Positions 8,215 to 55,716 of a DNA stretch of 64,000 nucleotides are shown here, in pieces. Under the pieces are notes generated by a model, which saw nothing but the letters and a program-made list of their open reading frames with translations, did no database searches and was not told where the DNA came from. A program made the translations under genes and the position numbers. Position 1 is the first letter of the stretch; the number at the start of each line of letters is the position of its first letter. The stretch is from Tubulanus polymorphus. Its lineage: Eukaryota; Animalia; Nemertea. The DNA lies in NCBI RefSeq assembly GCF_964204645.1, contig NC_134025.1, positions 1,922,001 through 1,986,000 on the forward strand. The letters run 5' to 3'.

Positions 8215-8860
8215 GGGCCTTTCCAGATTCAAGTTTAGCTGAAACGAGTAAAAGAACGACATTTCTGTAGTCACACAATCCTTTGATTAATTGAAATTGA
8301 CATGTGTATCAACTTAACTCTCTTAAAATTGCAGAGCATCCTTTTTTTCATCGTCCTATGGTGTCTCTGTCATCTTCTTAATCATGGTGATGGGCCTGTT
8401 CAGATTAAGTTTACCTGAAATAGTAAAAAAAGATATTTCTGTAGTCAGACAATTCTTTGATTAATTGTAATTGACATGTGTATCAACTTAACTTTCTTAA
8501 AATTGCCGAGTATCCTTTTTTCCATCGTCCTATGGTGTCTTCGTCATCTGCTTAATCATGGTGATGGGCCTGTTCAGATAAAGTTTACCTGAAATAGTAA
8601 AAAAAGACATTTCTGTAGTCAGACAATTCATTGATTAATTGTAATTGACATGTGTATCAACTTAACTTTCTTAAATATGCCGAGAATCCTTTTTTCATCG
8701 TCCTAAGGTGTCTCTGTCATCTTCTTAATCATGGTGATTGGCCTGTTCAGATTAAGTTTACCTGAAATAGTAAAAAAAGACATTTCTGAAGTCACACAAT
8801 TCTTTGATTAATTGTAATTGACATGTGTATCAACTTAACTTTCTCAAGATTGCCGAGTTC
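8215..8860. repeat. ~174-bp tandem repeat, about 3.7 copies
   Basis: The anchor C(T/A)TTGATTAATTG...TTGACATGTGTATCAACTTAAC recurs at 8281, 8455, 8629 and 8802. Confidence 0.95.
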
Positions 8861-14400: not shown

Positions 14401-17400
14401 AACTGCCCCAGAATTCAAGCTTTTCCTCAAAGAAGATTTATTGATGAGATGCAGTCTATCGTATTTATGTTTATGTCTGATTGATTGTAGGCGTTTAATC
14501 GGCGTTCGAACCTGTGAATCTCGGTGTTTATTTTCGGGAAGTCGCGGTGAAGTTTGCGTCATTGAACCTCTACACATGAATTATCAGATTAAAGATCATC
14601 CGATGAAAGATGTTTTGGTTCTCGCGATGGGAACTTTATCGAAGGTTCTCGTCGTTACTTTGAGACCGAAACTGAAAGTCATGTTTATGCATCCATTAAA
14701 GGTAATATTGATTATAAATCGATGAAAGAATCCTGAAATTTTGAAATGATCATTCGGTAAAAACCCTTTCAATTGAATTGGAAGACAACGATCCTATGAA
14801 AATTGAATATTACAGAATTATTTATATTTCAGGGAGACCCTACAACATTGCCGATACTAGCGTGGCAGTTTGTTATTATACAAGTGTCTGATAGCGACCG
14901 GGTTATTGATCCTGTCCTAGCTTTCGGACGCGATCGTACGATCTATTTCTATCAAGTCGTTTGTAAATCCGCTGATGATATTACGTTCTGTTGTTTACAA
15001 AAGATGACTTTGAATTATACTCTATTAGCGATTGAGGTAAATTAACTCAATATTCTGATATCACCTACCGATATATCGTCATCTATTTTACTAATGTTGT
15101 TGTTTATTGATTGTGATTACAGTGGATGAACACAAAAACATTGATTACACTGGACACCTCAGAAAAATTACATATAATCGATGTGCGAACAGATGAGGAA
15201 CTTGCTGTAAGTATTTCTGACTGTTTCTTCAAGATTCACGCACTGTTTTCATGTATGTAATGTTTTGCTATGAAATATCTGTAGGAAATTGATGTCAGTT
15301 ATGTACAACTCGGTTATGCGTCGAGTATATTCAAGTCACTTGCCACAGGTGGAAACGTCAGTAAAGCTCTGGTAAGTGATTTTGATCCTCATGTCATAAG
15401 GTAAGATAAAAAACTGTTTGAATCTACTGAATATAATGCGATATTTTCAGGCATTAGCCGGTGAAAGAGCGTGCTATAATTCAGTTGTATGTAATGAAGG
15501 TCAGTTTTTATTACTGGGTGTGAAATCAGTTCATGTGATGACATTAAGAACGTGGGAAGAGGTTTGTATCTTATAACGGGCTCCTGAGTTCGCGTGCTAT
15601 ATACGAGCACGATTCACTGAGTTGATGCTGTTTTTTTATTCTAACAGAGAATCGATGTACTCGTTAAAGCTGACCGGTATCAGGATGCCTTACAGCTCGC
15701 TTACTCGTTTTACGACGGTAGCGCTAAAGCTGTTATTGGTTTACTCGGAGGACGAACGAAACGAAGAAGTACCGTGTCTGCCAAGGTAACGAACGGATGT
15801 ACCGAGAGAATCCGAGAATAGAAATTTATTTACCCGGTAGTTTGGATTCAGGAAGAAGAATTGGATGTAACAAGATAACGGGGCTACACTTATCATACAT
15901 GAAGTTTAGCTTCGTCATTATAAATGTCATCTATAATTATTGATGTGATGTATGTTTTATCATAAATGCCTTAGATCATTACTCGAGCTTTGAATCGGTC
16001 AATATTTGTGTTTGAAAAATAAGATAAAATCCCGCTATTTACAGATTAAAAGAATTTAAAAACCAGAATTTATCTATTAAATCTAAAATATTTAAAAGAC
16101 ACGACGTTTCGATCTCACCCTAGAGATCATCGTCAGGATTTTATCTTATTATCCGTTCACCACGTTTGAGTGTGGTCATCGTTCTATTTGTGTTTGAAGT
16201 TTAGCTATTTCTAATAATGAATCACGTACATGAATATTGTTTGTATATTGTAGATGATGGACCTGCTGTATAACTATGTAGATTTATCAATGACCACAAA
16301 TTTACCGGAACGAGGAAAACTAGAAGAATTAGAGGAATATTATCAGAATGTTGTTCCAGTTTGCGTTGATTACTGTTTATCACTCGGTAAAATGTACGTA
16401 TCACTAACAACCCCTCACCTTTTTTCAATTTTCCCAAATGGAAATGAACACATATGGTTATGCAACAGTCAACATTTTAGCGGTGACTGGTTGATAAAGG
16501 TGATTTTCAAGGGAAATTGCTGAAGAAAGTTGCCTTTGGCAAATGCAATATGTGAAATGTAATGAATTTCCCAAGTATTTCCCTGATTTGAGGAAAATAT
16601 TTCAAATTCCCAAATATTTCCAAACTGGGAATTATTATTTCAAAATTCCCGAGTTTTTCCCAATTTCCCTGTTCTGTGTGAACCTTGTTTATCAGGCTCA
16701 TTTCATAAACTGGTTAAGTTTAGATTTTTGCAGACAGTTACAAACAGTTCAATGTTCTGACATAACTCTGGATTCTGACTCTACCTACGGTGATCATAAC
16801 TATGAGTTTCATCCTATATTCAACGTTAATTTAGATCTCTATTTTGTTGAAAAGTCAGGGAATTTTTTGTTTCTTGGTTTTCTAGCTGATAAAAAGTGGT
16901 ACAAGGAACCACTAAAAAAAAGGCCCACTCGGGATATCTTATAATTGGATCAGGGAATTTTTGGTCATTGGGCAAATATCAGAGAATTTTGGATTCTCTG
17001 ATGAGTAACAATGTGTATATTGTATTTGATAGGAGTGTATTGTTTGGTCGGATCTATGAACGGTTCAGTATGGATCAACTCGCTAAAGGTGTTTTCCTCG
17101 AATGTTTAGAACCGTTTATTCTAAACGATAAACTGATTTCAATCACTCCGTCGGTGATGAAGGATTTCATCAATCATTACGAAGCTAAAGGAATGTTACA
17201 GAACGTTGAAGCTTGTATCGTTCATCTGGATATTGCTAGTTTAGATATTCATCAGGTAACAAACATCTATCCATCTATTCTATAGAATACTTGATATACC
17301 ATAACTGTGTAAATCACTTCAAATTTTCATAGTTTCTCCTCAAAAACTCCTCAAATTCTCCGATGATGGAAAAGTATGAACAGTGTTAGGACGATAACCA

Positions 17401-20400
17401 CACTCAAACGTGGTGAACGGATAATAAGATAAAAACAAGAATTTATTTATTCAATCTAAAATATATAGAATACACGACGTTTCGATCTCAGAGATAATCG
17501 TCAGGTGATCAGAGATCACGAGAGAGATCGCAGGCGTTACAGATCATCGACACCTGACGATGATCTCTGATCTCTATATATTTTAGATTGAATAAATAAA
17601 TTCTTGTTTTTAAATTCTTTTCATCTGTAGATAGTGGGTTTTTATCTTATGAACAGTGTTGTTGTCTATTAATCAGTTGCTGAGATATGTCTAATGGCTG
17701 ATGTCTAATGGCTGATGTCTAATGGCTGATGTCTAATGGCTGATGTCTAATGTACATGTTTCTTCAGGTTGTTGTATTATGTTGGGGTCATGGATTATAC
17801 GACGCCATCATATACGTGTACAATAAAGGAATGCAGGATTACGTGACGGCGTTAGAAGAATTACTGCATATTCTGTGTAGAGCAGTAGTAACTGGAAAAC
17901 AGCTCACTGGTACGTAGAGAAATAAAAATGTTTTTTTTTTGCCGTACTATAAAAACTGATTTCTTATATTTGTAAATTATTTTCAGATGATCAAATTCGA
18001 CTAGGAAACAAACTATTAGTTTATATCAGGTATCTATTGTCACCATGTTTTACAGCTTTGTCATCTGGTGCGATATTACATAAAAACTGATTTTATTTCA
18101 CGATTGTCTTTTTGTTTACAGTTGTTGTTTGGCCGGAAGAGCGTACCCACTCGGTGATATTCCTGCTGAACTTGTTTCCAATGTAAAAGAAGATGTATTC
18201 CGCTCTATAACAGCTCTTCACACGAAGGAACCTGCGGCAGGTATCGATATTCGTACTTGTATTCGTCGTAGATATCACGTATTAATAGAATTCACTCGAT
18301 ACCGATTCAGTTCATTGTATTTTCAGATGAAGAAATTTATCCATATTTACGAACTTTATTGAGATTCGATACTCGTGAGTTTCTCAATGTACTGGCGTTA
18401 GCATTCGAGGAACCTGAGTTTAATTCCGAAGATGGGTAAATATATAGATCGATTAGAATTATGTTATTTACCTCGTTATAACTACTATCTTCATTTTAGA
18501 ATGAAACTTGCTTAAGTCGTCATAATTGTGATGATCATTACGTTGACTTGTGGAAATGAAAACATAGTGAATCGATTTGGAAATACAAGTTGGGACTTGA
18601 ATATAGTGACGACTTAAGTGATGTGATGAATTAACTGACTGTACATGTACATTGTTATTGAAGGATCCGACAGCGTCAAAGAGTTGTAGATATTCTACTG
18701 CAGGTTATGGTAGAAAGTGTTGGATTTTCGGTAAGTCAATTCTCAAGAGTTGAATGTTGTTTTATACGTGAACCGGTAAGAACTGATTTGATATTCGGAA
18801 TATTTTCAGCCGACTCAAGTTGGAATATTGTTTACATTCCTCGCGCGTCAAATGGCTCGACACGAGAACACAATCCACGTGAACAGAGTCTTGTTTGAAC
18901 AGGTAATAAACTGAATTATATGAAGTTTTTTGGGCCCAGTGTCACGAAAAAGTGTAAGCCTAACACGGTTAAGTTTGAATTGTTGTCCTGAAGTAACCGA
19001 TAGCGATTACACCAAAAATTTGAGTGAAACTGGGCCCAGGTGATATTTTCGACTGCTTTGATGACGTATTTTCTTCGTTTTTGTAGGTGCTTGAATTTCT
19101 GTCTAATCCTGATGACGAATCTCGACATGAAGAAAGACAACAAGCGTTGATGGAATTGTTAAACGTTGGTCAGATTCAGTTTGATGAAGATCGTTTACTA
19201 TTACTCGCGGAAAAAGCTCAATTGTAAGCAAGTAAATCGCTTGGAAATTCGCTTGGACTCATGCATCAGATTTTAATCGTTAAATTATTAAAACGTTGTT
19301 TATTTTTGTAACTATTAGTTATCGTGTTTGTGAACATTTGTACGAGAAAAGAAGACAATTTGATAAAATTCTCGCATGTTATTGGAGCGATGCATCACGG
19401 AAGGTTTGTTTGATAATGAATGAATGGTTTTATCATCAGTTTGATACTGATATCAGGTTCAGTTCGATACTGGTATCAGTTACTAATTTCTGTATTGTTT
19501 CCAGCATCAAGCATTCGCGTACATTGAAAAGATTATAATAAGTCGTAATTTCACCGAAGATGAGAAAAATGACGTAAAGAAAGAAGCATTGAAACATCTG
19601 CCTGTAAGTTAATTACTTGATTCTAATGTTGTTATAGTATTTCACATATTTTGGTTAATACAGTCCAACTTGCTTAAGCCGTTATTGCATCACGGAAGTG
19701 TCACTATTTGTTAGTCCTAATTTGTATATCCAATTAGATGTACTAAATTTAAGTCCTCATTTGGATTAAATTTGTCATCATGCTGAACGTCCCAACTATG
19801 ACAGCTTAAGCAAGTTCCACTGTGTTTCACTCTACAATTAAAACTGGAGTCAAAATCAGTGAACTATGAACTGTATTTTGATTTTTCTTGTATATTTGAT
19901 ATAGGAATTGATTCAAATCGACAGCAAGAAGGCGGCTGAATTAACTATTATCGGATTCGCTAATGCACTCAGCGATATCATTAAGAAACTATCCGACGAT
20001 TCAAAGATGCTTTATGAGTTTCTGAAAGGAGTTTTTGAATATAAGTCAGTCATTGAAAATTTACAGTTATTTGTAATCGTGAATGTGTTATAATTAAAGC
20101 TGTTTTTCTGTTTTATTTGTTTTAGAGAAGCGAATGAAAGCGCTATTTATTCCGATCGTCAGATCATCGTTGAACCAGGGATTCATGAGTTTTATATCGG
20201 TTTAATGTGTCAACACGAACCAAATACTGTTTATAATTACATCATGCGTGCAGATAATTACAGAATAGATGAAACACTGGCTGTAAGTTTAAACTGAACT
20301 ATTGGTTATAATAAACTGTAGTAAACCAGAAGCCAGTTGCGTAGTCATGGCTTAGATTTAAGACCAGTCTATGACCAACTTAGGTCGATAGCGGAGCTAA

Positions 20401-23400
20401 CAACTTAACATCAGTCGTAAAGTTTGAGGTCGCTTTTTAAGACCACTATTTGACTTATTGTTTTAATCACATTTTGACCGAGAACTATTGAACTGGGTCC
20501 TGATCTCATACAATACATATCTATAATTATAGATTTGTCAGAAGTATCAACTGTCTGAACCGACTGCTTTCCTCTTAGAGAAATCTGGTAAAATTCAACC
20601 AGCATTTGACATCATGTTGCAGGTAATTTGATTTAATTTCCTCTGAAGTTCGTATTTATGAATCGTGAAGCTTTATTCTCCTTCTCAATCATCTGGAATA
20701 TTGTAGACTGTACACAGTAAAATACAAGAGCTTACAGATATCTTACAAGTTACGAAACAACAGTTAAACCAGGAACAAAGTAAGTACAGCGTCTATCCTC
20801 GTACCTGTAGACCTGGCTCATACTATAAACTAACAGCAACTAGATCTAAAATGAAAACAAATCTTACTTTTTTCTCAGTTTTCAAAGTTAAGAAATGTAA
20901 GTCATTTCTCAGTATATATATGTAGATTGTTATTTCGCTACTGCTTTTTGCTGCATTCTAGACTCTTGGATCCCGTGATGGTTTTCTGTTTTTATTTCTA
21001 CTCCCGTTTTATGAATTACGTGGATTCATTTTTATCGCTGTTGTTGTGAATACGAGCATGTATTTTCAATTAATCGTATTCATTTGTAGCGTATTTCAAA
21101 GCGTGTAACTTTTGTTTTGAATTATTCGTCGTTGCTACAATATTCAGTATATATTGTGCGTGATATATTTCAGCTATTGCCGGGTGCATGAAAAAGATTG
21201 AAATTGCCCTTTTCAATATCATCCATTTGAGTCAAAGAAGTTCACCTAGACTAGATGAGAGCGGTAGAGAGGTAGGGATTTACATACTCGCTTTCATTTC
21301 ATCTAGCTCCTCTTTGTACTGTATGGATTAGGCTAAACAAAAACGATACCTTGTTTCTCCGCAGCGGCCGGGTCATTTTTGTAAAATATGATAAAATTTA
21401 TAAACAGTTCATTTCTATAGCGGCCGGGTCTGTTACGGTAAAATTGATCACGATTTTTAAAAAAGTAATGTATAGGGTAGATAGGCGGCCGGCCGGGTCA
21501 ACATTTAAGCTCAGCAGAGCGGAGAAACAAGGTATCAATTTTTTTTAGCCTTATATATGTATATATTTCAGGCATTGTGGTTCCCATTGCTGGATTTAAT
21601 GATGACTTCTCAAAGGAAACTGAAGGAAGAAATTAGTAAACAATTCTGGGAAGGTAAATGAAATACTTGCGCATACTGTATAGCTTGATCCATTCTAAAT
21701 TGGAACGGACTAAATATTGAATATTCTAAATAATATAATGTAAACATAGCTTATGCTAAAGAAATGATACCTTGTTTCTCCTAATCAGGTCATTTTGTGA
21801 ACTGCAATAAAATTTGTAGTTTTAGTTCATTTGTATAACTGCTGAGTCTGTTATTGTTAGCTTAATCATCATTTATGAGAAAGATATGTAGGCCTACATG
21901 GTAGATTGGCGGCTGGCCGGGTCAACTTTTAAGCTCGGCAGATATGAGAAACAAAGTAAAAATTTTTAGCCTGACATTATCTTTTTCTTTAACTTGTTAT
22001 AATTGTAGATTTTAAAGGTTTAACGGGGCAGGTTCTCAATAGTATGATGGGATTCATAGCTTTACCTGCGATACTACAAAAAATCATTCAGGATCCGACG
22101 TATAGTTCCGGAAAATTCGGTGATATTCGAGAACTCATTCTCGGAATGCTCGATACTTATAACTATGAAAAAGTGAGTGCTTCGTCGAGCATTTTCTCGT
22201 ATATTCGGAATATTTCACGCAGATTTTCGTTGATATCTACTTAATTTCAGACGTTATTGAATACATGTAATAATCTGTTAAACTACGATCTACATCTTCA
22301 ACTGGCCAGTTTACATCGAGCTGCTAACAGAGGTTTCGTTCCGCGCGGTGAATTCTGCAGTCTTTGCGGTAAAACGTTCGGAATTGCGGTCAGTGCTGCA
22401 ACTATTATTGTATTCAGGTAATGAATCTGATTTATGAGTTTATGGTTTTGAGTGTTTACCTTTCGAGCGACGGAACGTAACTTCATACAGCAAGTTTTTC
22501 TAAGGGATAATGATGAAATTTTTACTAGAGGAAATTGCATTAAATTTTAGAAATTGCTGAGTATTATTTACTATGAAACTCGTTTTGCTAAAGGATCACC
22601 CCTCTTCCTAAATCCTCGGGGGAACTGACTTTGGATTCTGGAAAAAGTATTTACTTATGACTTACAGAAGTGCTTACCGGTATTAGTTTTGTGTCAGGCT
22701 TACTGCTGCGGATTCAACACGGGGATATTTTTCTATTTTCAGATGTGGACATAGTTATCATACTCAATGTCTTCACGGAACTGAATCGCGTCATGTTATA
22801 AATGGAGAAGAACATTGGGCGTGTTATTTATGCAGTAATACGAAGGAGGGCAGAGGTTTATTGGCTGGAACTCGATTACAATGGCACATGAAAAAACCAG
22901 AATCGCCAAAATTACTGAAAACGATGAAAAGGAATCAGGTGATTAGAATGATCTTAGAATTATTAATTTTTGTTACATCATCATTAGATAAAAGTGAAAT
23001 AAAATTGAAGAAAAACCCACAATATGAAGATAAACTAACACAGTATTTGACATTTTGACTCAATTCTGAGCCATTATCAAAACTGAAAAAAATGTTTTGA
23101 AAATTGCTCACAGAATTGACTCGAAATATCAAACGCTCTCTTAGTTTTTCCTACACATTGTGGGTTTGTCTTCAATTGAATTAGACGTTCACTTGTCTAT
23201 GGAAACCAAAAATGTATCTTTATCTAATTCTAGGCTGTAATGAATGAAGAACAGATTTTAGCTATAGAAAACCTACGTAAAACTCAGAAGACTCCATCAC
23301 GGGTAAATATTCTCTCGAAATATTCAAAATCACCGGTACAAAACATGTACAACATGTACTCATAGAATAGTTTGTATTTTCAGCTCGCTGTTCTGGATCA

Positions 23401-23539
23401 ATTAACTAAGAAAGATCGCGGTTCTGGAAGAGCTGTTAATCCATTCATGCATGAAACTAATGATTCTTCTAACGGTGGAATATTTCAGCGTGAAAACTTT
23501 CAGTTACAGTTAAACGCTCCGCCTTACAATGTTACATGA
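11475..23539 (+). CDS. VPS8: Vacuolar protein sorting-associated protein 8 (CORVET subunit): WD40 propeller, clathrin-repeat-like solenoid, C-terminal RING-H2; about 37 exons
   Basis: Continuous GT-AG exon chain from the ATG at 11475 (exon starts ~11475, 12347, 12508, 13118, 13290, 13441, 13582, 13797, 13973, 14491, 14833, 15123, 15285, 15451, 15648, 16254, 17033, 17768, 17987, 18122, 18327, 18664, 18810, 19087, 19319, 19505, 19905, 20126, 20533, 20707, 21174, 21572, 22009, 22251, 22743, 23233, 23384) to TGA at 23539. Motifs include PPTLESILNE, IAIGTSHGLVLVF, FLECLEPFILND, LGNKLLVYISCCLAGRAYP, TAFLLEKSG, ALWFPLLD and the RING CSLC...CGHSYHTQC...CYLC. Confidence 0.95.
11753..12027. mobile_element. 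MITE with CATAGGCGTCCCC TIRs and a 5-bp TSD in VPS8 intron 1
   Basis: CATAGGCGTCCCCAGG ... CCTTGGGGACGCCTATG; TTGCT at 11748-11752 and 12028-12032. Confidence 0.85.
12662..13053. mobile_element. TIR element with an 8-bp TSD carrying a tRNA-derived Pol III segment and telomere-like CCCTAA repeats
   Basis: TIRs GGCAGTTATTTTACCGGATCCGGTCACCGACTTCTGAACGCTATT / AATAGCGTTCAGAAGTCCGCGACCAGATCTGGCTAAATAATCACTTGCC; TSD AACTAAAA (12654-12661 and 13054-13061). Minus-strand A box TGGTCTAGTGG and B box GGTTCGAGTC at ~12780-12840; CCCTAACCC runs at 12881-12962. Confidence 0.8.
14095..14382. mobile_element. Partial hAT-like MITE with GGAAAACTCAGGGAA internal repeats
   Basis: Repeated GGAAAACTCA(G/C/T)GGAA units ending in GTGGCCACCCTG. 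Related CAGGGAA/TTCCCTG-rich remnants occur at ~16410-16690 and ~16850-17000. Confidence 0.6.
16098..16137 (-). ncRNA. Minimal type-I hammerhead ribozyme core from a Penelope-like remnant, antisense in a VPS8 intron
   Basis: Minus strand: C-CTGACGA-T-GATCTC-TAGGGT-GAGATC-GAAAC-GTC-GTGTC, i.e. CUGANGA core, 6-bp stem II, GAAA and a GUC cleavage triplet. The 5' stem-I strand is truncated here but is seen as GACAC in the copy at 17549. Confidence 0.65.
17391..17611. mobile_element. Penelope-like remnant with inverted terminal segments and partial hammerhead copies
   Basis: 17431-17468 and 17573-17611 are inverted repeats. A hammerhead-like copy lies on - at 17472-17507 and a 5' half GACAC-CTGACGA-TGATCTC on + at 17549-17567. 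17391-17432 is the reverse complement of 16141-16182. Confidence 0.7.
17687..17752. repeat. 14-bp tandem repeat, about 4.7 copies
   Basis: (ATGTCTAATGGCTG)n just upstream of a VPS8 acceptor. Confidence 0.95.
18932..19037. mobile_element. Short MITE with GGGCCCAGT TIRs (Harbinger-like)
   Basis: GGGCCCAGTGTCAC ... GTGAAACTGGGCCC; TSD unclear. A related degenerate element lies at ~20330-20500. Confidence 0.65.
19659..19823. mobile_element. Tc1/mariner-type MITE
   Basis: TACAGTCCAACTTGCTTAAGC ... GCTTAAGCAAGTTCCACTGTG; a related degenerate copy lies at ~18505-18620. Confidence 0.65.
21328..21553. mobile_element. MITE family copy 1 (AGGCTAAA...TTTAGCCT ends)
   Basis: TTAGGCTAAACAAAAACGATACCTTGTTTCTCCG ... 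CGGAGAAACAAGGTATCAATTTTTTTTAGCCTTA. Confidence 0.8.
21751..21972. mobile_element. MITE family copy 2 (diverged), in the next intron
   Basis: Aligns along its length with 21328-21553 (GATACCTTGTTTCTC, GGCCGGGTCAAC.TTTAAGCTC, TTTAGCC). Confidence 0.75.
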
Positions 23540-26500
23540 ACCCAAGATCGGGTTATTACTCGCCTAATTCATTATTGCTGTATTGTATAGATATATTTTT
23601 AGTTGTGTTTATAATATATCAAATATATAATGATATCTAGTCATCTTTTAAATTGTCTTCGTGTGTTATTGTTGTTTAATTGCGGATTCTCGCCGTCCTT
23701 ACGTCTATGCTTCAGAGGATCTCAATCGACGGTGCTGCCACTGATTAATATTGATATACGGCCACTAGAGACATCAAACCACCGCCGCCGCCGCTGAGTC
23801 TCTAACCGTCGAGGCCATCAAGTGTAGTTGGTGGTTGCGTCACCATTTATGGATTCGGCTTGAATCGTGTGCGGAGGTGACTTATGGCTACCTCCTCTCG
23901 CCAGGCACTAGAAAACCACCGCGGCTATATTCCTCTTTCTTTATTTCTACAATAGATATACGTAGAATATTTTTTAAACAAAATACGAATTCATCAAGTC
24001 CATGAAAATATACAGGATTCAAATGATTTGAGTCCCCGGGGCACACACCCGGCGTGCTCGGTTCTTTCACGGCTGTTTTTTAATTGTCTTGTGCCCATAA
24101 AACTCAGCGTTTTGACACTCCACGTAGGTGCGTCCCGGGATCGGACTCAGACCCACTGTCTCCGTATTTTTCAAAAAGCTGATAAAAGACTGACACAGAG
24201 ACAGTGATGAGTTATTTCGGAGATGGACGATTGTCTCGTCGGTGAAAAGATGAATTCATCCAAAACAACCGACGATGACGATCGAGTGCGGGTACATTCT
24301 AACACTGGCACGCGCCAAACCCCTATAATATACCCTAACCACGTACACAATCGTTAGTATCCTCAAACTTAAAGAATGGTCCCGGGTGTCTGTGCACTTT
24401 TATGAAATCAAAACAGTGACCGTAATGAGAATAACGCGGCGCGTGTGTAACGTGGTCTCGATCACGTGGCACTCTTGAGAGGACTGTCCATGAAATCCTC
24501 CGTGTTGACGTCACCGATATTTTCAAAATCTCTGGTGAATCGTTAGAATCAATTCAAGTTTTTTTTTCTTTTTTCATTAAAACAAAAAGAGATTCCCCAT
24601 ATTATATGAGTGTAATTGATATCGATACCGAAATACCTATCTAAATTTATTCATCTCAAATAAAAAAAGTCTCTATATTTGATATATTTTTTCGTTAAGA
24701 ATATAATTTATGTCGATGATTTACGGCGCCTTTTGAAATTCAGATGTTCTTGGGATTGAGATCGGGTGCGCCGTTCGCGTGGCTGGCCTTTAATCCCGCT
24801 AATGAAAAGAATTATTTTGACACGCAAACAACGAAGTGTATAATAGCAACTGTAGGAGACTCACAGGTGATTCTCACTGAGCGACATCCCGTGTCTTTTC
24901 ATATCGTCAATTGTCACACCCACTGTCGTGCGATTGGATTGTTTGACTAATATATTCTAAGTTGAATGCCCACCACTAGACGGCGTGGATCGGTTTGATA
25001 CAGATGTCGTAGCACTTAATGCGGGACGCATTCATCATCGACGTTTTGAATTCTCAACTGGACTATTTATTTTAAGTCTAATCTTCATAAACGACTTGTT
25101 CAACAGTTTTAAGACATTTAAAGGATTTAGATAAAATCAATCCGATATCAATCAACACCATCGATTCAAATCGCTTGTTTAGGTAAGTTAATCAACTTTA
25201 TCTTTGACAACTGACTTATGATAGATATTTTCAAAATTTTCAAATATTTCTATGTTATTCACCGAGTCACTCGATAAATTATTGTTGATGCTCATGTAGA
25301 ATATCGAAGATGTCTTTACACTTTTACTGATCTTAGATATAGTAGAATTAATGTATAGATTGTTTAGATGTTATATGTGTTCTATGACATTGTGGATCTT
25401 TATATGGAATTCTGTTAGGCGATTGTTCCATTCTGACACTCGTATATTTTTTAGAAATTTTCGAAAGGTTTTCACTATCACGTACCAACCTCAACGGTTC
25501 TGCCGTGTGAATAGAGAAGATGGCTCTGTAGATATCACTATATGTTCATGTCATGTCGACTAAGAAGGAAATAGACGAGTCTTTATTATAGAATCATGAA
25601 CTTGTGATAAATGTAATAGAAAGAATCTGGGGCAGGTCCTCGAAAACAGTCAGTTCTCATATTATCATATACACAATATGTACTTCAAGTATAAACTGAA
25701 CGGGCTGGGTTTTCTTCTTCCGGTTCGGTTTCTCTGTATTATAATAAGAAAGTCACGAGATCCTAAAAGGATGCAGATATAAAGAATTAGGTTGAATGTC
25801 AGCAGATCTTGAGAAACACAAACAATCTTTATACAAAACGTCTGCTTCGGGTCGTAAAAACTCAAGTTTTCTTGAGTCACTCGATACTTTTTGACGCCGT
25901 TTGACGCGGGCTATCAGTAAAGAATCTTACCAGGAGTGGGTGAAGTTTACGTTAGAAACAGATGTTTGAGAAGTTATTTCCTTCCTGTCTCTTCGAGAAA
26001 ACTGCACGTTTTTTCCCCGATACAAACGTCATGTTTAACATATGCCTCGCGGCCAAAAACACAAGGATTAGTTTCCCTTCTCAGAGTTATACAAATATGA
26101 ACGTATTTTTTAAAATCTAATTAGTGGATCTGTTTTCAAGTGTTGATCACGATATTGATTATTTTCAGTCCTAATTAGGTTAACCTGCATGACGTCATTG
26201 AAATGACGCGCAAACACACAATGACATCTCTATGAAATGAAAAAATTTTGATTATCAATTATTTTCCAAACTTGAAGTTGCGAAGATCGCCGATAAAAAG
26301 ACCACCCACATGGGTTGAAAAAATTGTCATCCCGAAAATCGTGATATATCTCAAAAACTTTTGTTGATTGGTGGATTCGGTGTTTTTACCGACTCAATTA
26401 ACGCTTTTCATGAGACGGATCGTCCATGGCTTACAGACGAACGCTCAAAGATGTTATTGGTGTCGTGCCTATCCGGCTTCCTCTTCAAGATTGATCAAGT

Positions 26501-28949: not shown

Positions 28950-31127
28950 GTGGAGCTCTTAGTTTGAAAGTTTGTATCGTTGTGGGTGACCAGTCAGCCG
29001 ACGGTCACGTGTGAATTGCACTATTCACACTAAAAGCCTCCGATTACAATAATTCTTAATAAATAACTGATTTAATATGTATAAAGCTGAATTCGATCCA
29101 AAAACTGTTACATTTCTATTCACTGGCGAAATATCCCCTGCAGCCTTTCATCCTCGACGCGGCGCAGCCACTCTTTATAAACTCTAGTAAAAGGTGATTA
29201 GGATATAAGGCCTTTATGTCAACACTGTCCTTTAATGACTTCTTGTAAGAAACGGCGTGGAAAAATATTTACGCGGCCGCTTACTCGTTTTATTAAGTAG
29301 ACTCAATTAATTTTTAAAGAAGAAAGATGTCGATTAAGTAAATGCTAATCTTGTCGTTTTGTAAAGCCTCTTGATGGATTAATTTGTCGAAATTATTGAC
29401 TTTACACTCGAGAAAAGTCTTCTCGAGATAAAAGCGAATCGGGTTCGCGAATATTCGTGCACGATTCTCATCTACGGTATTACGCGACGAAACAAAAATG
29501 ATTTATAAGAAATAAAGGGATATCAAATAAAGCAGATTTGTAATATCGGAGTATGGATTTTCTTTTGTTCTTTTCTTATAGATCGGTTTATTGTGTACAA
29601 GCGCAATATTCTCACACCAAGAAATATCGCGAATTGTCACACATATATACATATTGCATAGCGCATCGCAAAAAAAATTCGAATAAAGCAATGTTATGAG
29701 ATGGGGGTTGCGCCGAGGTTGGAGGCATGGCATTATAGGGGTAGAGCGTCAGGTGTACGATTAAACGCGACAGTAGATGCATCTATCATCAGCGGGATAT
29801 AAAAATTCGCCGCGCTTTTATTGTTTGAAACGGTGTTTGTTGAGAGTTATCAATGCGAAACGGAGACCCGACCAACGGTTCGCCCGCGCACGTGTCAGTG
29901 TTGGTTCTTCGCACACGACCCGACCGCACAATTCTCCACAATCCAAGAAATGGTTTATGGTCTACAAGATATAGTTACCATATTAAGAAAAAGAGAAGAC
30001 CGTTGTCTCATGTGCCGTGGGCATTTGAACATCCGTCGCCACCGCAATACAATTATATTATACGGCGCTGCATTTTGAATACGGGTTGAGTGGGCCAATA
30101 AGCATATCGTGTCGATGTACACTTGACTGCACTTGTATTTGGCCAAGATTCGTATCTTTCTGATGGCGATTGTTTGAAACGTCGCCAAAGAACAAATACT
30201 CTCGTCAAGAAGAGTTTTCGCAGATGCTGAATTCAATCCTCACCTGCATTCGTATTTCAAGACGTCGATCTTTTGTCCAGTATTCACATAGAACGAGGAC
30301 TTCAAAGACTCGCTAATATAAATGTGGTAAGATGCACATACATTGCATACGTTAGGAATCTTTATAGAACCGACGTGTATTTATTTATACACAGTTTAGT
30401 AAAGAGATTGTGTGAAAAATCTAAGGTGTGATACACATGTGATAATCATTGTTCTCTTAAATCTTCTTGAGATGTTCCGCGTATTAATAATGAATAATTT
30501 ATGTTGCTATGTCCTCGGGTTTGTCGCACGTTAAGCGAATTACTTACTGAACTGCTTTCTATAAACAATCTTCGTCTGTCGCGGACTCGTATACTCGACA
30601 CTTACGACTATTTCTATGTTGGGATTATTGCAACTTCGGTAAGAATACATAAATAAGGATAGTTGAATAGCTGCCCGAAGTGAACAGATATTGTAGGATT
30701 ATTTGGTGCTAGTCGGGTGTAGGTTTCTTTTACATTATTCATATAAATATATTTGAATTTGTATTCTGTATATTTAAAATCCTCATGCGAATAAATTCTG
30801 TTGCGCTCTATAATCCGGAATACGATCTACATAAATCGTGTTCTTAGTGATTCCTGTCTTGTACGACAAGCTGTTGCAATGAAAGAATTTGCAGATTTTA
30901 CGTGTTCGGTAAATGTTCCTAATATGACGGGTTCATACATTATTCATTTACGAAACAAAAGTTGTCAGATGAAATGCGGGCTGATCTCGGGCTGGGTGAA
31001 ATATATACGATGTTTCGAATTGATCCAAATTGCCTAATAACGGATTGTACCTTTGTCTATTTTTCTAGGTATGCTAATAAGCTGAAGTTTGTTCAACGAG
31101 TCGAGAGAGAGTTCCAAAAATAAAACC

Positions 31128-33134
31128 ATGTCAGCGGCTGTTGTAGAGAATAGTGGCAACCTCTGTCAACCGATAGAAGAAAGATCACAGGACGTGGAAA
31201 GTGAGGAGGAAAGTAGAGAATTTGAAAGTATGAATTCGTCGACTGTTAACGGCGAAGATGATAGAACCGAAGATCTCGAAGAGGAGCAAATCGATCCCGG
31301 ATCGGATAAAGATGAAGATGATAGATTCATCAGATCGAATTCGTTTAATTCTCGTATTAACGGCGAGGCGATCGACGAACATTTATTAGCTAGTTACAAA
31401 CTTTCTCCCGATACGAATAAACTATTGCGAGATATTATTCAGAATCGTGAACGTAAACTACACGCGATGAGGCTGGCAAACGGGCAGTCGCCATTACAGA
31501 TCAACGGTGACCATAATGCCATGATAAACCAACTGCTGCAGGAGCGAGAAATCTACCGAAATGGAGAACTGAATTTAGATATGTCTTTAGTTTCTCAAGG
31601 TATTTCTAATAACTCTGACGACAGCGATAACGAAATGGATAAAAATCAAAACAAAAGATCGTGTTCTTCGCCGTTGATTAGTCCCGGGGGTAGTTCGAGC
31701 GGGCAGCTCAGCCCCAGCGACCCGGAGGCCGTGAAAGTAAAACGCGCTCGCGTTGAGAATATCGTTACTGGTATGAGAATGTCACCGTCGACTCAACCGA
31801 AATCCGAATCGGGAAATCCTCCTTTAGAAAAACGCAGCAATAAACGTAAACAATATCAACCTCAACAACATGACGTCAGATTCAACGAGGATGACGAACC
31901 GAGTGCAAAACGTGGCCGAGTCGAAAAAGACAATTTGAAAGATCAGTTGAAACAAATGCAGCAGCAATTGGTCGAAATGCAACAAAAATATATTCAATTG
32001 TTCGAAAAGACATCCGCAGCCGGTTTGGACACTGTCGATTCTTGTGTCAATGTTGACAGTTTTAATAAAACTAGTCAATGTGTCGGCGAAAATGCGAAGG
32101 AGACAAACAATAATAATACGAAATTAGGCGAAAAGTCGAAATCCCCAAGTTTGCCGTTCATAAATCTCGAAAATAAAGATATGGAACCCAGCCATTTTAT
32201 CGATCAGGTGTGTAAACTAGTCAAAGAACAGGAAGTTAAAATCAGTAAACCATCCGCTAATGCGCTGCCATCAAAAACTAGCATCGAGGACCTCGCGAAA
32301 TCCATAAAATCTGAAATCAGGGACGTAATCAGTAATACTGTTGATTCTGTGGTAAGCAAATTTCTACAAGAAAATAAACTAAAACTGAAGGAAGCGATGA
32401 CACCGGAACCACCTGTAGTTCAAGAGAAACTCAACACGACGCCAACTCCGATACCTCAAATGCCACGAGTCAGCACACCTAATAAAGCTGAACAGAAACC
32501 TCCTAAAACTAAAGTTACCGATAAAACACCTTTCAGAATACCTGACCTGGCCATATCGAATGGTTTCCACGATCCAGCATTCCATCCACTTCCCGCTCAT
32601 CATCCATTCCATCCATTCCCGCTGTTTGGACCGGCTCTTCATCACCACCACGCCATGTTCCACGCACCTAAGAAAGAACCCGAACAGACCGAAGCGTTGC
32701 CGCTGATCGTCAACACTCCTAAGAAGAAGCGCACGAAAGTCACCGATACTCGTTTATCACCGCGAGCAGCGAGAGCGTTATTACATGAAAATCAAATGGA
32801 AGCTGAGAAAATGATGATGCATCCACTGACCCACGATGGATATCCACTTATTCCCGTATCATTACCGACATCAGTTGCCATTCCAAACCCTGGTTTACAA
32901 CATTCTGATATCATGGCAATGCATAATAACCCTGAACATCATTCCGCCTTCCACGATGTGTCCCGTTCGCCTCCTATGGACCACTTTTCGCCTAATGGTC
33001 GACTATCGCCGCCAGATAGCATGCCGATGTCTATACCTGCCATGATGAGAAAAGATCATAGAGCTGACAGTCTGTACGGTGGTGACAGATCGAGAAGTGA
33101 AACTCCCACTTATGAAGCAAGTATGGCACATATC
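31128..33134 (+). CDS. pros: prospero/Prox homeobox protein, coding exon 1 (669 codons)
   Basis: Long ORF with an ATG in good context (AAAACCATG, 31128), downstream of an acceptor at 31068. Prox motifs KRARVENIVTGM, KRKQYQPQQ, a coiled coil and EQTEALPLIV.TPKKKRTKVTDTRLSPR. It ends at the U12 donor ATATCCTTT. Confidence 0.95.
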
Positions 33135-36100
33135 ATATCCTTTTCAAAAATGTAAATCAATATTTCATATGCAAAAATTCCCAATTTTCTGGGAAATAGA
33201 TCCAGTCAGCGACAGTTACCTTCAGTAGCTTCATCCCCAAAAAAAAACCTTTTAAAACCTTGTGTCATTTGCCAATTAGTGCCGATGCTCGAAGCGAGTA
33301 AGCATTTTTCAATGGTATCACTGTATTCAAGAAGACGCTTATTGTAATACCTGGTAAATCAACACTCTTAGATAAACGATACTTCTGATATATTTCATAA
33401 ATGGGTGGCGACCATATCTTCATCCTCAACGTCATTTTTTGCAAAAAAGCATACTCATTCAAATCACGTGACTGCGAAATTCTATATATAGCCCTACAGT
33501 CTTAGTAAGAGAGATTGAAATCAATTTATTGATGTCCAAAGATCACGCTCTTGTTAACAGTTTCTTCTGGCTTATGAAGTTGGACAAAAGGACAACATCT
33601 GTGGTCAGAGACAATAAACCTATTGAAAATAGCTAATAAACTAAAACTATGAAAGATGCGTCTAAGCATCATCTGTAAATGTAAGAGGCAGGGTGTAAAT
33701 CTATTGTCAGAACGATGAGAATGGAACAAAGATGATGCCCTCGCGATGACGTGTGTCGTACATAAAATAATATGACCCGCCGCGAAATAAAGACAAGATG
33801 AGTGTGTTAGGGGCAATTGAATATCGAATTTTGAATGCTGAAGTCTTCGGAACACCTACTATCCTCTGCTTTGTTAAGCATCGGAAAGTGAGCGGAATTT
33901 CTCGTTAACAAAGCTTAGCTCCAACATCGTAGAGAAAGTTATCGACAATAGTATACAAGATACTATTCACTTTCATAATTACAACATACATTGTTCGTCG
34001 GGTCTAGATGTTGATTTGACTCGTGCGCATTTTTTCTTTAAGGATTGGTCATCATTGATCGTTCTTTGTTAGCGTCTAAAGCGTTCAGGTGTGCTATTTT
34101 AAGGGGTGGCGTTTGTTATTTTTTTTCTCGGGCACCGTTCAAACACACGACAATGACAATGGTTTCAACGATCATTTTTATATCACGTGAACTAGATGTT
34201 ATAAATTGGCTCTCATCCCTTTGAAAATTAAATATTTCTGCGAAGCAAGCCGTAAATCTTGAAAACAAATGTAATTCCCTCTTGAGATCTGAGATTCGTT
34301 TACATTTAAGATTTGGTCTCGATGATTCTTAAAAGCTTCCTGAAAATGTCGTTGATGTGTAAGAAACTGGTTCAACTGCTATCGGCGGTTCCATTAGAAA
34401 ACCTACTCTGTAAAACGATACTCATAGTCGTGAACGTGAAATGTCTGAAGGCAATCGATCTCAGTAAATACGTGAAAAAGACTTCAGTTTCTTATTTAGA
34501 AAATAATCATATACCGTATACTGTAAAATTATCGATCGTAGAAGTTCTCGTTACATAATTCATCGAGACGAGAAAAAAAAACCCAGAGAAAAATACCAAA
34601 GTGGAAGTCATTACCTTTAATGAGTGGGTTTGATGCATTATGAATTACTTTAAAAGAGGAAACTAGACAAAAATGATGTTAGTTAAGCACTGAAAGCGTC
34701 GTTGCTCAAGACACTTGAGGTTTCAGTCCACCAAATTCACCACCCTACACATCTATTTTGAGGTTAATTGGAAAAGTGGGCTGCTTCTTTTTAGGAAAAT
34801 TCTCAGAGCTACCTCTCATTAAAACTAGAAAATCAATTTGAATCATCAGATAGAACGGTAACTTGCCATTCATTATTGCACTTAAAGATTATTCGCCACA
34901 TCTCACAAAAATATGGATTAATAATGAAATTCTTTTAATTATGCATGGATACGTTTAGTCATCGATAGACTGTAGGTAGAAATTCAAAAACTGATATAAA
35001 AATTCGAATGTAAAGAGCTCGTATTTCGTGTTTATTGAAACCTTCCAGTTTTCTTCCTTTGTTACACTGACTGTTACTTATTCTATCGGCTTGAAAGGTA
35101 TTGAATTTTGATCGAGCCCTCAGGCTTTTGCGACATTAATCTTGAATTGTGTTTACTATAAAAGAAAACCTTACTTCAAAAAATAGGTATTAGTTACCAT
35201 TTCGGCTTTGTGTTACAAGAGAAGGCGATCGAGATATATTCCAATATCTGAAATTAGCCCGCGGTTCCACCCATCAATATAGTCATCTTTAGGTAATATA
35301 CGAGCCGGAAAATCAATGTAAATGGAAGGCTCTTGAAATCTTTTAAAGAAGTTCTGCGTATACTTCAAATATCAATCACGTATCATCAAGTGTAGGAGAT
35401 CAAATGGAACCTGAAGAAAATTCTAGAAAAGCAGCTTCATCTGAATAGAAATAACATATACACGTATCGTTTTACACGAGCAGATCAGGTTTTACACTTA
35501 GAAAAAAGATACATCATCTATTATTACTGCTTACATTTCGTCGCAAATGTCCATCGTTTTATTCACTATATTGATAGTTTCTAAGTAAGGACATATTTCT
35601 TTTCAGAAATCCTATGACAACCTGTCGCAAATTTCACTTGAAACCAGACATGAAAAAATCTTTATTTCAAAAAATCAACTTCTGTTCTCGTGTCGAACAT
35701 TCGTAGCACATGTCGAATCGTAATTGAGAGTCTGAATTCACTGACTTTTCTGGTAAATTATTTCGATGTAAAGTAACAATATGCTTTCTAATTTGCTGGC
35801 AGAACCGCGTGCGTGCATCATCAATCAATCAACCGCCCTCTAAACTAATAATAGTAAAGGAAAATATGAAAAGCTTGCAGGTACATAGTTGGTTATTGAT
35901 AATTCTGACAGATGTTTTGCTTGAAAATATAACTGCAACAAATCTTTTCAAACTCTATTGAACGCATAAGCTGCTAAATGGTCGGAACAATGCATTTAAT
36001 GAACAAATTTCTTATTATACACACTACTTAGCTATTTTTATGTTCTATGAAATGCGAACATTAGGGAAACCTGTGCACAGGTTTAACTGCATAAATTTAA

Positions 36101-37533
36101 CGAAGATGGATTCATGTCGGACTAATTAGTGTAACCTTCTATTATATATATACAAATGACTTTGAAAATCTGAAAAATGAAATACAATGAACAAGTGCAG
36201 GTCTATGATATACACGCATGGCGTTTTGAATAGAAAATCCTTTTAGTGTAATATGAAATATAACAACAAAAAACTAAAAGCCAAGTCACAAGATACACCA
36301 CAATATACCCACATCTTGTCGTCATAGAATTTTTTTTTTCAAAAATTGGGCCAAATACAATGAAGCTTCTACATTTGATTGGGCAATTTGAATTGATGAT
36401 TACAAGTCAAACAATAGTTATACAATTTGCAATATACTATGATAATCCTCTACAAAAAGGAACTTGTACGTATATACATATATCATGAAATGTATCATTT
36501 ATATTCGATCTTGGAGTTGAAATGGAGTTATGAATTTAACTAGTGGCTGTAGATGAGAACAGGTGTCATTGATTTAACTATTTCTCATCGGACATATCAA
36601 ACAAATAATAAGGAGAGGTTTATCTCGTATCTGCCATATTCAAAATTTCTAAATTCGATAAGAATGACTTATCGAGAACTGAAGTTTTAAGTTATAATCA
36701 TTTGACCACCTGTGGAATTTCTCTTGAAAGCAACATCTGGTCTTTTAGAGCGATGTTTGATGTGTAAATGAGGGGAAGGAAATCAGTTTTAGATATTCTA
36801 AATTCGATTATAGATCAAACACGGAAAGTTCTTGGGAACATTTAGGTTCATCGCGTTTGTATTAAGCACGCTTTACACAAATTTAATAATCATAATGATT
36901 GGTGTCGTGTAGTCGTGTGTCAGCTTGCCCGGGAACCAAATCATTTACTTTGAATATCTTAATCTTCACAGCGGTTAATAAAACCAAATTTGTTATCAAT
37001 ACATCGGCGTCAAAGGAAACCTTTCCGAGTTAATTGTTGATCGCTTTTCTAATAGCTTTTTCCAATCTCTGGAGTCATGTAGTTCTGTGGCTTTGTGCCA
37101 GTCCCGATGCCATTTCCTTGTGTTAAGAAAATAACAAAGTCAAGATATTGAACTTAGCGAAAATTGCTTAGCACGAGACACTGTAATGCATAATTAGTGA
37201 CTTGCAGTCGCCATCAGGAAGTTCTATCCATAAACCAATAACCAATTATTGTTTGCTTACAATTTATTTCATCGTTGCGACAGTATAGCTAAGGAAATTG
37301 ACAGGGAGCCCGACGGACTTTGCATGCACCTTCACACAAAAACAATGTCACAATCGATGGACATTTTAGTCGATGGCAACTAAACATAAAACGCATAAAT
37401 ATCTAATTAAACGCCAAGACGCGACTAAATTGATTAAATGTAAACTCACGTGAAAGCAATGTACATATTTAAACGCTTTAAATCTATCTAAGAATGATCG
37501 AGTATTTTTAGTTTTAACCTTAACCGATCTTAC
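33135..37533 (+). other. pros: U12-type (minor spliceosome) AT-AC intron of prospero, 4399 nt, with a nested GT-AG pair at 33152-37511
   Basis: 5' site ATATCCTTT (33135-33143), branch site CCTTAAC (37518-37524), 3' TAC ending at 37533. The phase-0 join gives ...[21 protein letters not shown]. Confidence 0.95.
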
Positions 37534-37688
37534 ACCAGCACTCTAACGCCGATGCACCTGAGGAAAGCGAAACTGATGTTCTTCTTCGTGCGATATCCGA
37601 GTTCCGCTATTTTGAAGGTCTACTTTCCGGACATCAAATTCAACAAAAACAACACGGCTCAGCTTGTCAAGTGGTTCAGCAACTTCAG
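37534..37688 (+). CDS. pros: prospero coding exon 2 (Prospero-type homeodomain)
   Basis: [51 protein letters not shown](R), followed by the donor AG|GTAAGA. Not present in the ORF track. Confidence 0.97.
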
Positions 37689-40600: not shown

Positions 40601-43169
40601 TTAGGACAATCTTTTAAGAGATGCATAGAAGAGGGATTAAAATAAACAGATGTTTTAAAGGGTGTTGAATATGCATGCAACTGTAATCGTGAACATTACG
40701 TGTATTAGGGATTATCATCATCTTTGACACTAATAGAAACATGAGTTTCATATTCAATATCAATCCGACGACACGAAATGAAAAACACAACACTTTCAAA
40801 AGATATCTATAACTTTTGAGTGTCATCTATCGGATTTTCTATTCGAGAGTACCACTCATTTTACATTTCATGCTGGTTATTCAAATGGTTTAATTCTTAA
40901 TTCTATTTCTCAGTTCTATAATCTCTTACGGATGTTTTTTGGTATTTCACTTTTCTAACCTGTCGGTCTGGTGGCTCTATAGATATGAGACATACTGCGA
41001 GTTCTGCGAATTAATGAAGGCGAATTGAAATTGACAATAGACATTTTAATAAAATCTACTCTGAAAGCCGCTGTATATCAAATTGAAGCACAGCCGCAAG
41101 AAATATTTCAATATGAATTTGATAAAATAAAGAACTTTATAATTTCCTTAATAATGCCCGACAGACTCTTCGTCAAAGTGACAATGAGTTATGGATAGTT
41201 TAATTTAATGCTAAGTTGGAGTATAAGATACACATTGAATAGATTTTATAAGAATCGCATGCGATATGGTATTATATGATGCTTTTGATGTAATCGCCCT
41301 CATATCCATAACAAAACATAGATTTATCAGCCCGATTCTCGGATCACAAGGAAGTTTACATACCTATTCCGGCTAATGTTCATATCCTTTTAAAAATAGA
41401 ATTTTCGAAACAACAGTTTTTATATCAATGATGGAAAACTAGAAGATTTTTGCTCTAGTTGGAAGGTGTTTTTGAATGAGTTTTGTAGAGTATTGTCTTG
41501 TGCGTGTCAATGAACATATGGAGCTCGGAAAAACGAGTAGCTAACAAGTAGTGAACGAACGCCTCGGGGAATAAAAACTACTGCTTTTTATAACATACGT
41601 AAATCTCCCTTTGTTGACTGTTTCATCAAAAAGATCCTCGAGTTGCATTCATTATATGGCAAAAACTACGTTTAAAATCGCATGTACTAACTAAGTACGT
41701 AGAAGTTTAATAAATTTTTAAAAGAAATAGTAATAAGTTGATGAACTGAAATTTATGTTGTTTTTGTGTCGGCTGGTGACAAGTTCAGGTTGTATGTAGC
41801 TGGCGCATATTACGCCTTCCAGGATGAAGTCTTGTGTAAGCAGAGATCCGTTTATTGCCACTTATAAAACATGCCTGTAAAATTAACTTGTCACCGAGGA
41901 AAAGACGAAATAACATCTTGTCCGATGACAAATTGTCGGCGATGTGTACACATCGGTCAAGGTTTCATATTTTCGACTTGCGGATTGCTCATTACTGCGT
42001 TGACAGCATCAATTACTGATATTAAAGGAGATAACCAGTAAATATCTGCTAAGGTTTTGTGATTTGACAACTTACTGAAAACTTGTTATGACATTGTTAA
42101 TTGGCGAATGATTGCCGCCTGGTTGAGACGTGATGCTTCAGGCTTACGAGACGTTCTGTATGAACCGTATCTATTACTTTGGGACACTATTATAATCATC
42201 AAATAAGCTCTACTGAGTCTGAAGAATCCACCGCCAATGGCAAAATTTAATTTTGTAATATAAAACTAGGCTCGATTCCGAGCTACTTAAAGTTGATAAT
42301 ATAATAGTATATGACAGTACGAGCAAGTCCAATCTGACTTACATTATAATCTCAAATTACAACTTGAGAATTGATATTCAATTAATCGTGATTATAATTG
42401 GGATGATACATTGACTCTTTAGTATCCGTGAACTGTTGCCTCGACGGTATCGAGGCTTCGGAAGCGTGCCAGACCCGAGTCATATCCCAATTGTATATTC
42501 AGAAGAAATATTAGCTCGCGTTTTGTATTCATATTGTCCATTTACCTGTAAGGAACGTTACAATGAATGCTTAAGACTCCGTAAATAATGGGCAACACCC
42601 AAATCCATCTCCAAAGTTTAGAACTTATAATAAAGAGATTGAATTGTCTGCTGATTTCAAAATAGTATCAATTTACCGATCTAATTGAAGTACAGCAGCA
42701 TCACCGCGCTCGTATAGCCCGAGGTTGTTCTCAGGGTGTGCGATTCTAATTATCATCGCTTATTGTCGGCACAGTGTTGCATCCTTCGATACACGCCAAC
42801 TTACTACGCATTTGAAGATGTTCACCCAGCAGGAAATCTCCTTTTCACGCGACAAGGCATAGAGCAATTTACATTTCTTAATTATTAATTATATCATTAA
42901 CTAGTTACAAAGCTATGGGAAAATAACAATATGGTAGACACAGTAACGCAACTTCTATCTATAAGTACCTCGTGGTTGCAATAATTCACTAAAACTGAAA
43001 CAGCTGGCTAAATATCAACTTTATTCATTCTTTGGTTTAATATTGATAGGTTTTATGACTGAATGTTTAAAATAATAACCATATAGTAAGGATACTAACA
43101 ACAAGTCATCGAGGCAGTAAATTGCGTCTCTCCCCGACGAGCAGGTGATACTGCAACTATGAATTCGAA

Positions 43170-53167: not shown

Positions 53168-53312
53168 GGAATTTTATTATATACAAATGGAGAAATACGC
53201 TCGTCAAGCGATCGCTGAAGGTGTCAAATCAGCCGAAGATCTGATCGTTACTACCGATTGTGAACTGTATCGTGTTCTAAACCTTCACTACAACAGAAAT
53301 AACCAAATTGAG
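53168..53312 (+). CDS. pros: prospero coding exon 3 (end of the homeodomain, start of the Prospero domain)
   Basis: tttttag|[49 protein letters not shown]|gtaaga; phase matches exon 2. Confidence 0.97.
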
Positions 53313-55530: not shown

Positions 55531-55716
55531 GTTCCCGATTCCTTCCGATCTGTCGTTCAGTCAACGTTACGAGAATTCTTCAGGTCAATCGTCGCCGGTA
55601 AAGACGCCGAACAATCGTGGAAGAAATCCATCTACAAAGTGATCGCCAGGATGGACGACCCGATGCCGGAATTCTTCAAGTCGGCCAACTGGATGGAACA
55701 ATCAGGGGAACAATAG
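55531..55716 (+). CDS. pros: prospero last coding exon (Prospero domain C-terminus)
   Basis: ttgtag|[61 protein letters not shown]. The full U12-spliced protein is 830 aa. Confidence 0.97.

Follow-up and report, generated by a model that had tools for sequence, protein, structure and literature searches.

A U12-type AT-AC intron in prospero of the ribbon worm Tubulanus polymorphus and apparent U2-type alternatives around it in other protostomes

An intron of prospero/PROX1 is listed as U12 type in both fly and human (PMC2831892), and PMC3291851 counts it as one of two minor introns shared by every insect and vertebrate genome analyzed there. In Drosophila it forms a twintron, in which an in-frame GT-AG pair inside the U12 intron adds a 29-residue insert; both forms, pros-S and pros-L, are expressed, and they are regulated via an enhancer bound by hnRNP A1 (PMC3291851, PMC3564746, PMC8329584). 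According to PMC3291851 the prospero twintron "is limited to insects only", a statement based on 20 insect genomes with mainly human as the outgroup, in a paper whose main text never mentions Daphnia, Ixodes or molluscs. Two further arrangements bear on this intron: shifted (interlocked) twintrons such as dipteran ZRSR2/Urp, which put both U2 sites downstream of the U12 sites and make up one third of vertebrate cases (PMC3564746), and cryptic U2 sites, weak GT and AG dinucleotides near the ends of minor introns that are usable when minor splicing fails and represent a proposed route of U12-to-U2 conversion (PMC8329584, PMC3584512). Here we describe the prospero intron in a 64,000-nucleotide (nt) stretch of the Tubulanus polymorphus genome (hereafter the window; assembly GCF_964204645.1, contig NC_134025.1, positions 1,922,001 to 1,986,000), in which an initial annotation had proposed a fly-like twintron.

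Tubulanus polymorphus is a palaeonemertean ribbon worm, which bears out the initial annotation in placing this prospero locus outside insects. The full-length match of the open reading frame at 31086-33155, at 100% identity, was the T. polymorphus protein P0001 (830 residues, "prospero homeobox protein 1-like"); the exons of the window gene sum to 830 codons, equal to the length of P0001, and the homeodomain exon matched the structures of fly Prospero and human PROX1. The window intron is the U12 intron of prospero/Prox, of an already known kind, and an ordinary record of an ancient minor intron. It shares with the fly and human intron the gene, the place, the AT-AC ends, the U12 donor and branch site and the same homeodomain start in the product (PMC2831892, PMC3291851), but is 4.4 kb long here and adds a new species record only. 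All three U12 signals reported earlier, at 33135, 37518 and 37532-37533, were present (Table 1): the donor fits RTATCCTTT at the exon boundary, the branch site lies near the AC end, a long pyrimidine tract is absent, and the spliced frame stays open into the homeodomain after AT-AC removal. The intron, with the same donor motif, also occupied the orthologous position in the 20 related loci for which both intron ends were available.

Transcript evidence came from assembled contigs, not raw reads, of four of six listed sequencing runs (X1, X2, X3 and X5), with differences from the genome listed from 1 in 100 upward; X1 and X5, whose run type is unrecorded, were taken as RNA from their joints and from loose ends running into neighboring exons. 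The sole joint in these runs was a 4,399-nt skip, whose cut may slide by 2 and includes AT..AC, at a depth of 147.9 in X1 and 5.2 in X5, which come from two separate studies. Contigs of X2 and X3 crossed both intron ends unspliced, and intronic contigs in X1 had depths of 3.5-15 against an exon depth of 148. The outer intron is thus genuine and is excised at its AT-AC ends, and its signals make excision by the minor spliceosome likely: U11/U12 would recognize ATATCCTTT and CCTTAAC, joining 33134 to 37534, and unspliced prospero RNA would run into a stop six codons into the retained intron (TAA, 33153-33155). We consider it likely that the minor spliceosome makes essentially all productive prospero mRNA in this species, and with it a single 830-residue protein, and that both inner sites, the GT as well as the AG, are probably weak and cryptic, yielding little or no second protein.

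Table 1. Features of the prospero locus in the window (window coordinates) and spider isoform proteins discussed in the text
Feature	Position or identifier	Strand	Evidence
Upstream non-coding prospero exon, 3' end (start unmapped)	25150..25182	+	Loose end of X1 contig matches; donor GT at 25183
Large coding exon of prospero; ATG 31128, 669 codons	31069..33134	+	Sequence, contigs, P0001
U12-type AT-AC intron, 4,399 nt, phase 0, directly 5' of homeodomain	33135..37533	+	Signals; contig joints in X1 and X5; P0001 junction
U12 5' splice site ATATCCTTT, reads ISF if translated	33135..33143	+	Same motif at orthologous place in 20 related loci
Candidate U2 donor, GT 33152-33153, lacking -1G and +5G; its TAA is the first stop in frame when the intron is retained	33149..33157	+	Sequence; use not seen in contigs
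Candidate nested U2 acceptor (AG at 37510-37511), scoring 4.4 bits, with a short run of T	37503..37511	+	Use not seen in contigs
U12 branch site CCTTAAC, 9 nt before intron end	37518..37524	+	Sequence
U12 3' splice site AC	37532..37533	+	Sequence, contig joint
Homeodomain exon	37534..37688	+	Sequence, contigs, structure match
AG within homeodomain exon, in frame with 33152 GT; weak, 0.1 bits; position suggested for the oyster form	37537..37538	+	Sequence
Coding exon, homeodomain end and Prospero domain start	53168..53312	+	Loose contig end behind 37689
Last coding exon with stop	55531..55716	+	Exon sum of 830 residues
Spider isoform proteins, two families, insert starting at U12 donor	P0074/P0075, P0219/P0345

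The geometry of the inner pair was as first described. Its GT (33152) lies 17 nt into the intron and is the first GT after the U12 donor, its AG (ending at 37511) lies 22 nt before the intron end, and the 39 nt between these sites and the U12 ends are in frame and stop-free, encoding 13 extra residues; as the 830-residue plain form matches P0001, the nested form would have 843. The pairing with the 22-nt AG is not unique, since two other AGs also share the frame of this GT, one 31 nt before the intron end and one 5 nt inside the homeodomain exon (37537-37538), and mixed U12/U2 joins at this intron are out of frame. To grade the sites we replaced a plain U1 match count (7/9 for the candidate donor) with a species matrix and a -1/+5 test, drawn from the 25 introns of the VPS8-like gene in the window that were common to spliced alignments of three homologs (of 34, 36 and 37), a small sample from one gene. 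Nine of these donors had only +5G, nine only -1G, seven both and none neither (Fisher p = 0.008 for dependence), and the three U2 donors of prospero itself all carry -1G. With T at -1 and A at +5, the candidate is of a class absent from this sample of donors used by the major spliceosome (0/25 mapped donors lacked both Gs). Recognition by U1/U6 is predicted to be poor, because the site has neither -1G nor +5G, unlike every mapped neighboring donor. GTAAAT donors do occur in VPS8, as the initial annotation had pointed out (3/25 introns), but all three have -1G where the candidate has T, and we discarded them as support. The inner acceptor, at 4.4 bits, falls in the weakest fifth (3/25 real acceptors lower), and the exonic AG, at 0.1 bits, exceeds two of the 25.

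A chance null was built by fixing the U12 signals and drawing the flanks from introns of the same gene over 20,000 trials. At search widths of 30, 60 and 100 nt, some nested, in-frame, stop-free GT..YAG pair arose in 8, 25 and 33% of trials, respectively; a pair matching the weakest real sites turned up in 2-11%, and one 2 bits weaker than the observed pair in 0.2-1.7%. The inner pair is therefore better than a typical chance pair, by thresholds that were chosen post hoc. No GT-AG joint of the inner pair was found in the contigs of the four runs, which drop rare forms and thus make its absence weak evidence. The database held one protein for Tubulanus polymorphus (830 residues, a cluster of 1) and one plain form for Lineus. 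None of the 40 contig differences shown (of 41) fell in the 39 candidate coding bases, a count that is uninformative at about one change per 100 intron bases.

Scanning with the homeodomain exon yielded 156 relatives and 80 retained loci; 62 were distinct, and 47 of these were genomic loci that combine a U12 branch site with a homeodomain not of the insect type (30 with AC ends and 17 with AG ends). By similarity only, two of the related loci look arthropod-like and one clam-like. In 28 of the 47 a stop codon, often the branch site itself, lies in frame within the last 21 nt of the intron, so a fly-type long form is forbidden there. A stop-free AG 16-60 nt upstream was present in 13/47 loci and reached 2.4 bits or more in 3/47, while an AG inside the homeodomain exon was present in 45/47. 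Among the 20 loci with both intron ends, four had some nested pair with its AG upstream of the branch site, none had the 17/22 offsets, and a single one (L064) had a pair, differently offset, whose two sites each came to within 2 bits of those in the window or surpassed them. The inner sites are not conserved among the annelid-like and mollusc relatives examined. The 33152 site was the top-scoring inner donor among non-insect loci with both ends.

A second prospero paralog in annelid-like loci (for example L035:178 and L042:3676; 17/47 loci) has a U12 intron of the GT-AG subtype (GTATCCTT...CAG), a subtype switch, and VSF read-throughs (proteins P0004, P0006 and P0013) suggest the GT-AG U12 subtype in other spiralians. 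In three loci that look copepod-like (L038, L039 and L055), a strong AG lies 23 nt ahead of where the homeodomain starts and both the AC and the branch site are absent, so that these loci may represent a completed U12-to-U2 conversion. Coding remnants in copepod-like genes (the cDNA-like L007, L010, L022 and L065; protein P0160) resemble translated U12 signals. Tick and mite proteins that end, ahead of the homeodomain, in runs of glycine plus Y may represent a further such conversion. In two arthropod-like loci (L018:9920-10000 and L079:9839-10000; protein P0167) the U12 introns are 81 and 162 nt long, multiples of three and stop-free, so that retention would yield an in-frame long form; the same introns were stop-free in 23% and 33% of shuffles.

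Of 224 junction-spanning proteins, 60 were assigned to spiralians on the basis of their source names, their clusters or their similarity, and 59 remained after the motif filter had removed one. At most 15 members were listed per cluster (15/200 for Crassostrea), so rare forms may be missed. Of the 59, 53 were plain, three were "hypothetical protein" models with odd junctions, and three were oyster forms with 14 residues gained and two lost; among the 23 with a Logan source, 22 were plain, one was the oyster form and none was nested. Isoform models in the database generally rest on transcripts, and those with a Logan source have a sequencing-run contig behind them. We rejected the junctions of Pinctada P0020, Sinanodonta P0029 and Tegillarca P0367 as isoform evidence, these being "hypothetical protein" models with no sequencing-run source; the Pinctada model, which lacks part of the homeodomain, was the only nested-looking protein among the 59.

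The oyster form is represented by P0041 (Crassostrea angulata, 819 residues; NCBI and Logan, six contigs), P0334 (C. virginica X1, which stands beside a plain X2) and P0336 (Magallana). Its 14 extra residues are those of the genomic read-through, after which the protein continues from the third residue of the homeodomain exon; part of the extension is conserved in both C. virginica and C. angulata. Reading back from the protein to the DNA, the form fits a shifted U2 intron that would join a GT 41 nt into the intron to an AG 5 bases inside the exon, and these three proteins are the best evidence for a twintron outside arthropods. Plain forms alone were seen in Ostrea, Saccostrea, mussels, scallops and clams. 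In spiders, X1/X2 pairs from Stegodyphus dumicola (982/974 residues) and Parasteatoda (977/969 residues) differ by the identical eight residues ISFLPSMH, and all seven scorpion proteins were plain. Decapods (P0288-P0318) had plain forms, forms with nine extra residues and forms with 33 or 41/42 (Penaeus, Cherax), their annotated isoform sets using one donor and two acceptors, with inserts that start at the U12 donor; inserts were also present in Homarus, Procambarus and Macrobrachium.

U2-type alternatives at the prospero minor intron therefore do not seem to be confined to insects, given the forms from spiders, five decapod genera and Crassostrea. Since the geometry varies from group to group and the nested form is missing or precluded in most spiralians, repeated recruitment of U2 splicing is favored over one ancestral switch. 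Of the ancient protostome switch suggested earlier, the occurrence beyond insects (in spiders, decapods and oysters) was supported, but a single origin was not, with 53/59 spiralian proteins plain and 28/47 loci carrying a stop. The likeness of the Tubulanus insert to the fly insert, ISFxK, turned out to be circular for the most part: the U12 donor itself translates as ISF, which closes the read-through product in most relatives examined, and the insert end is the branch site plus YAC read in frame, so that the U12 signals dictate ISF at one end and LN..Y at the other. Inserts of higher flies begin ISFLK (P0166, P0273), as do bivalve read-throughs, and we do not take ISF(x)K as evidence that the inserts are homologous. 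The lysine encoded by the fifth codon from the U12 donor (window 33147-33149) recurs in several bivalves, a limpet and higher flies; an A-rich donor context that extends further, or a vestige of coding use, may lie behind it. In several molluscs the last residue of the read-through protein before the stop is K, Q, L, G or M, which could hide a GTAA donor.

Several points weigh against the minor spliceosome acting alone in Tubulanus. The candidate donor is mid-range on the position matrix (6.2 bits; 11/25 real donors lower), and a pair scoring equally well arises in just 0.03-0.2% of random flanks, small values that overstate the case, as the matrix ignores the -1/+5 dependence and so overrates the site, and the thresholds are post hoc. 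Contigs lose rare forms, so that the missing GT-AG join proves little, and those used came from four of the six runs. Most of the 47 related loci look, by similarity grouping, like paralogs of one annelid-like group and are therefore not independent, and none is nemertean. U2-type second forms also appear to occur outside insects, a mollusc included. A nested twintron as in flies, with the major spliceosome using 33152 and 37511 in some cells or stages to add the 13 residues, would account for the open frame of the insert, the position of its GT as the first one after the U12 donor, the rank of that donor among non-insect loci and the rarity of the pair under the matrix nulls, and nested-type inserts are annotated in insects and decapods. 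As in Drosophila (PMC3291851, PMC3564746, PMC8329584), use of the pair would turn the U12 donor and branch site into coding sequence, but the insert is 13 rather than 29 residues, the U12 form alone was seen, and the donor is of an unused class. A working nested twintron is not borne out by the AT-AC joint, the only one in contigs that drop rare forms, by the single database isoform or by the donor class; the acceptor is weak as well, the lone nested-looking spiralian protein is the Pinctada model with its incomplete homeodomain, and the insert ends follow from the U12 signals. We regard nested splicing here as unlikely; a nested twintron in this species is unproven, with the balance against it.

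The same donor could instead serve a shifted twintron like the one suggested for oysters, running from the 33152 GT to the AG at 37538 and using the U12 branch site, which would leave the protein four residues longer overall but without the first two that the homeodomain exon encodes. This join is in frame and stop-free, the oyster forms stand beside plain ones, and an exonic AG is nearly universal in the related loci; like the shifted twintrons of PMC3564746, it and the oyster form put both U2 sites downstream of the U12 sites, although the oyster form is known at the protein level only. That AG, however, follows from a serine codon and scores near the bottom of the real acceptors, the donor is the same weak one, no such joint was found in the contigs, and the proteins seen from Ostrea, Saccostrea and the mussels, scallops and clams are plain. 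We rate this arrangement as quite improbable in Tubulanus. Slow minor splicing might alternatively lead to intron retention or out-of-frame U2 joining, truncating the protein before the homeodomain and lowering Prospero output. The early stop, the out-of-frame mixed joins and the intronic contigs of X1 are compatible with such an unproductive outlet, which would be the sole role of the inner GT, and retention and cryptic U2 use at minor introns have been reviewed (PMC8329584, PMC8199999); but the intronic cover may come from normal pre-mRNA or from DNA, the depth of contigs is not a good gauge, and no joint from 33151 was found in the contigs. We consider this highly improbable. Use of any U2 alternative in Tubulanus polymorphus is doubtful overall, and productive splicing by the minor spliceosome, with the inner pair resembling the weak cryptic sites described near other U12 ends (PMC8329584, PMC3584512), is the account we favor.

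Elsewhere in the window, an intron-rich gene, called VPS8-like after the initial annotation, lies on the plus strand at about 11480-23540, with 34-37 introns by spliced alignment to unnamed homologs. A tRNA-like fragment on the minus strand, seen by eye, lies inside a VPS8 intron at about 12770-12850, and imperfect tandem copies with a unit of about 180 nt, likewise seen by eye, lie at about 8270-8830. The U2 intron that follows the homeodomain exon contains a second perfect U12-donor motif (41382-41391); by a rough estimate, about one chance match is expected per window.

Looking to animals beyond the window, we think it very likely that this minor intron of prospero forms a hot spot across protostomes, at which the major spliceosome has been recruited repeatedly to in-frame sites around the U12 ends. 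The geometries are likely nested in insects and decapods, placed after the branch site in spiders, exon-shifted in oysters and fixed in copepods, and each recruitment likely remodels the start of the homeodomain. That the Tubulanus window is a further live case, by way of the 33152 GT, we hold only as a tentative and rather unlikely extension. No account of U2-type prospero forms outside insects turned up in literature searches restricted to open-access full text, though subscription papers and the supplements of PMC3291851 and PMC10639083 may hold them. The view that the twintron is found in "insects only" (PMC3291851) is contradicted by the isoforms that the database lists for Crassostrea, for five genera of decapods and for two families of spiders. 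If reads confirm these forms, one intron would show several stages of the proposed route from U12 through twintron to U2, and repeated selection for variable homeodomain starts in a regulator of neural fate would become testable.

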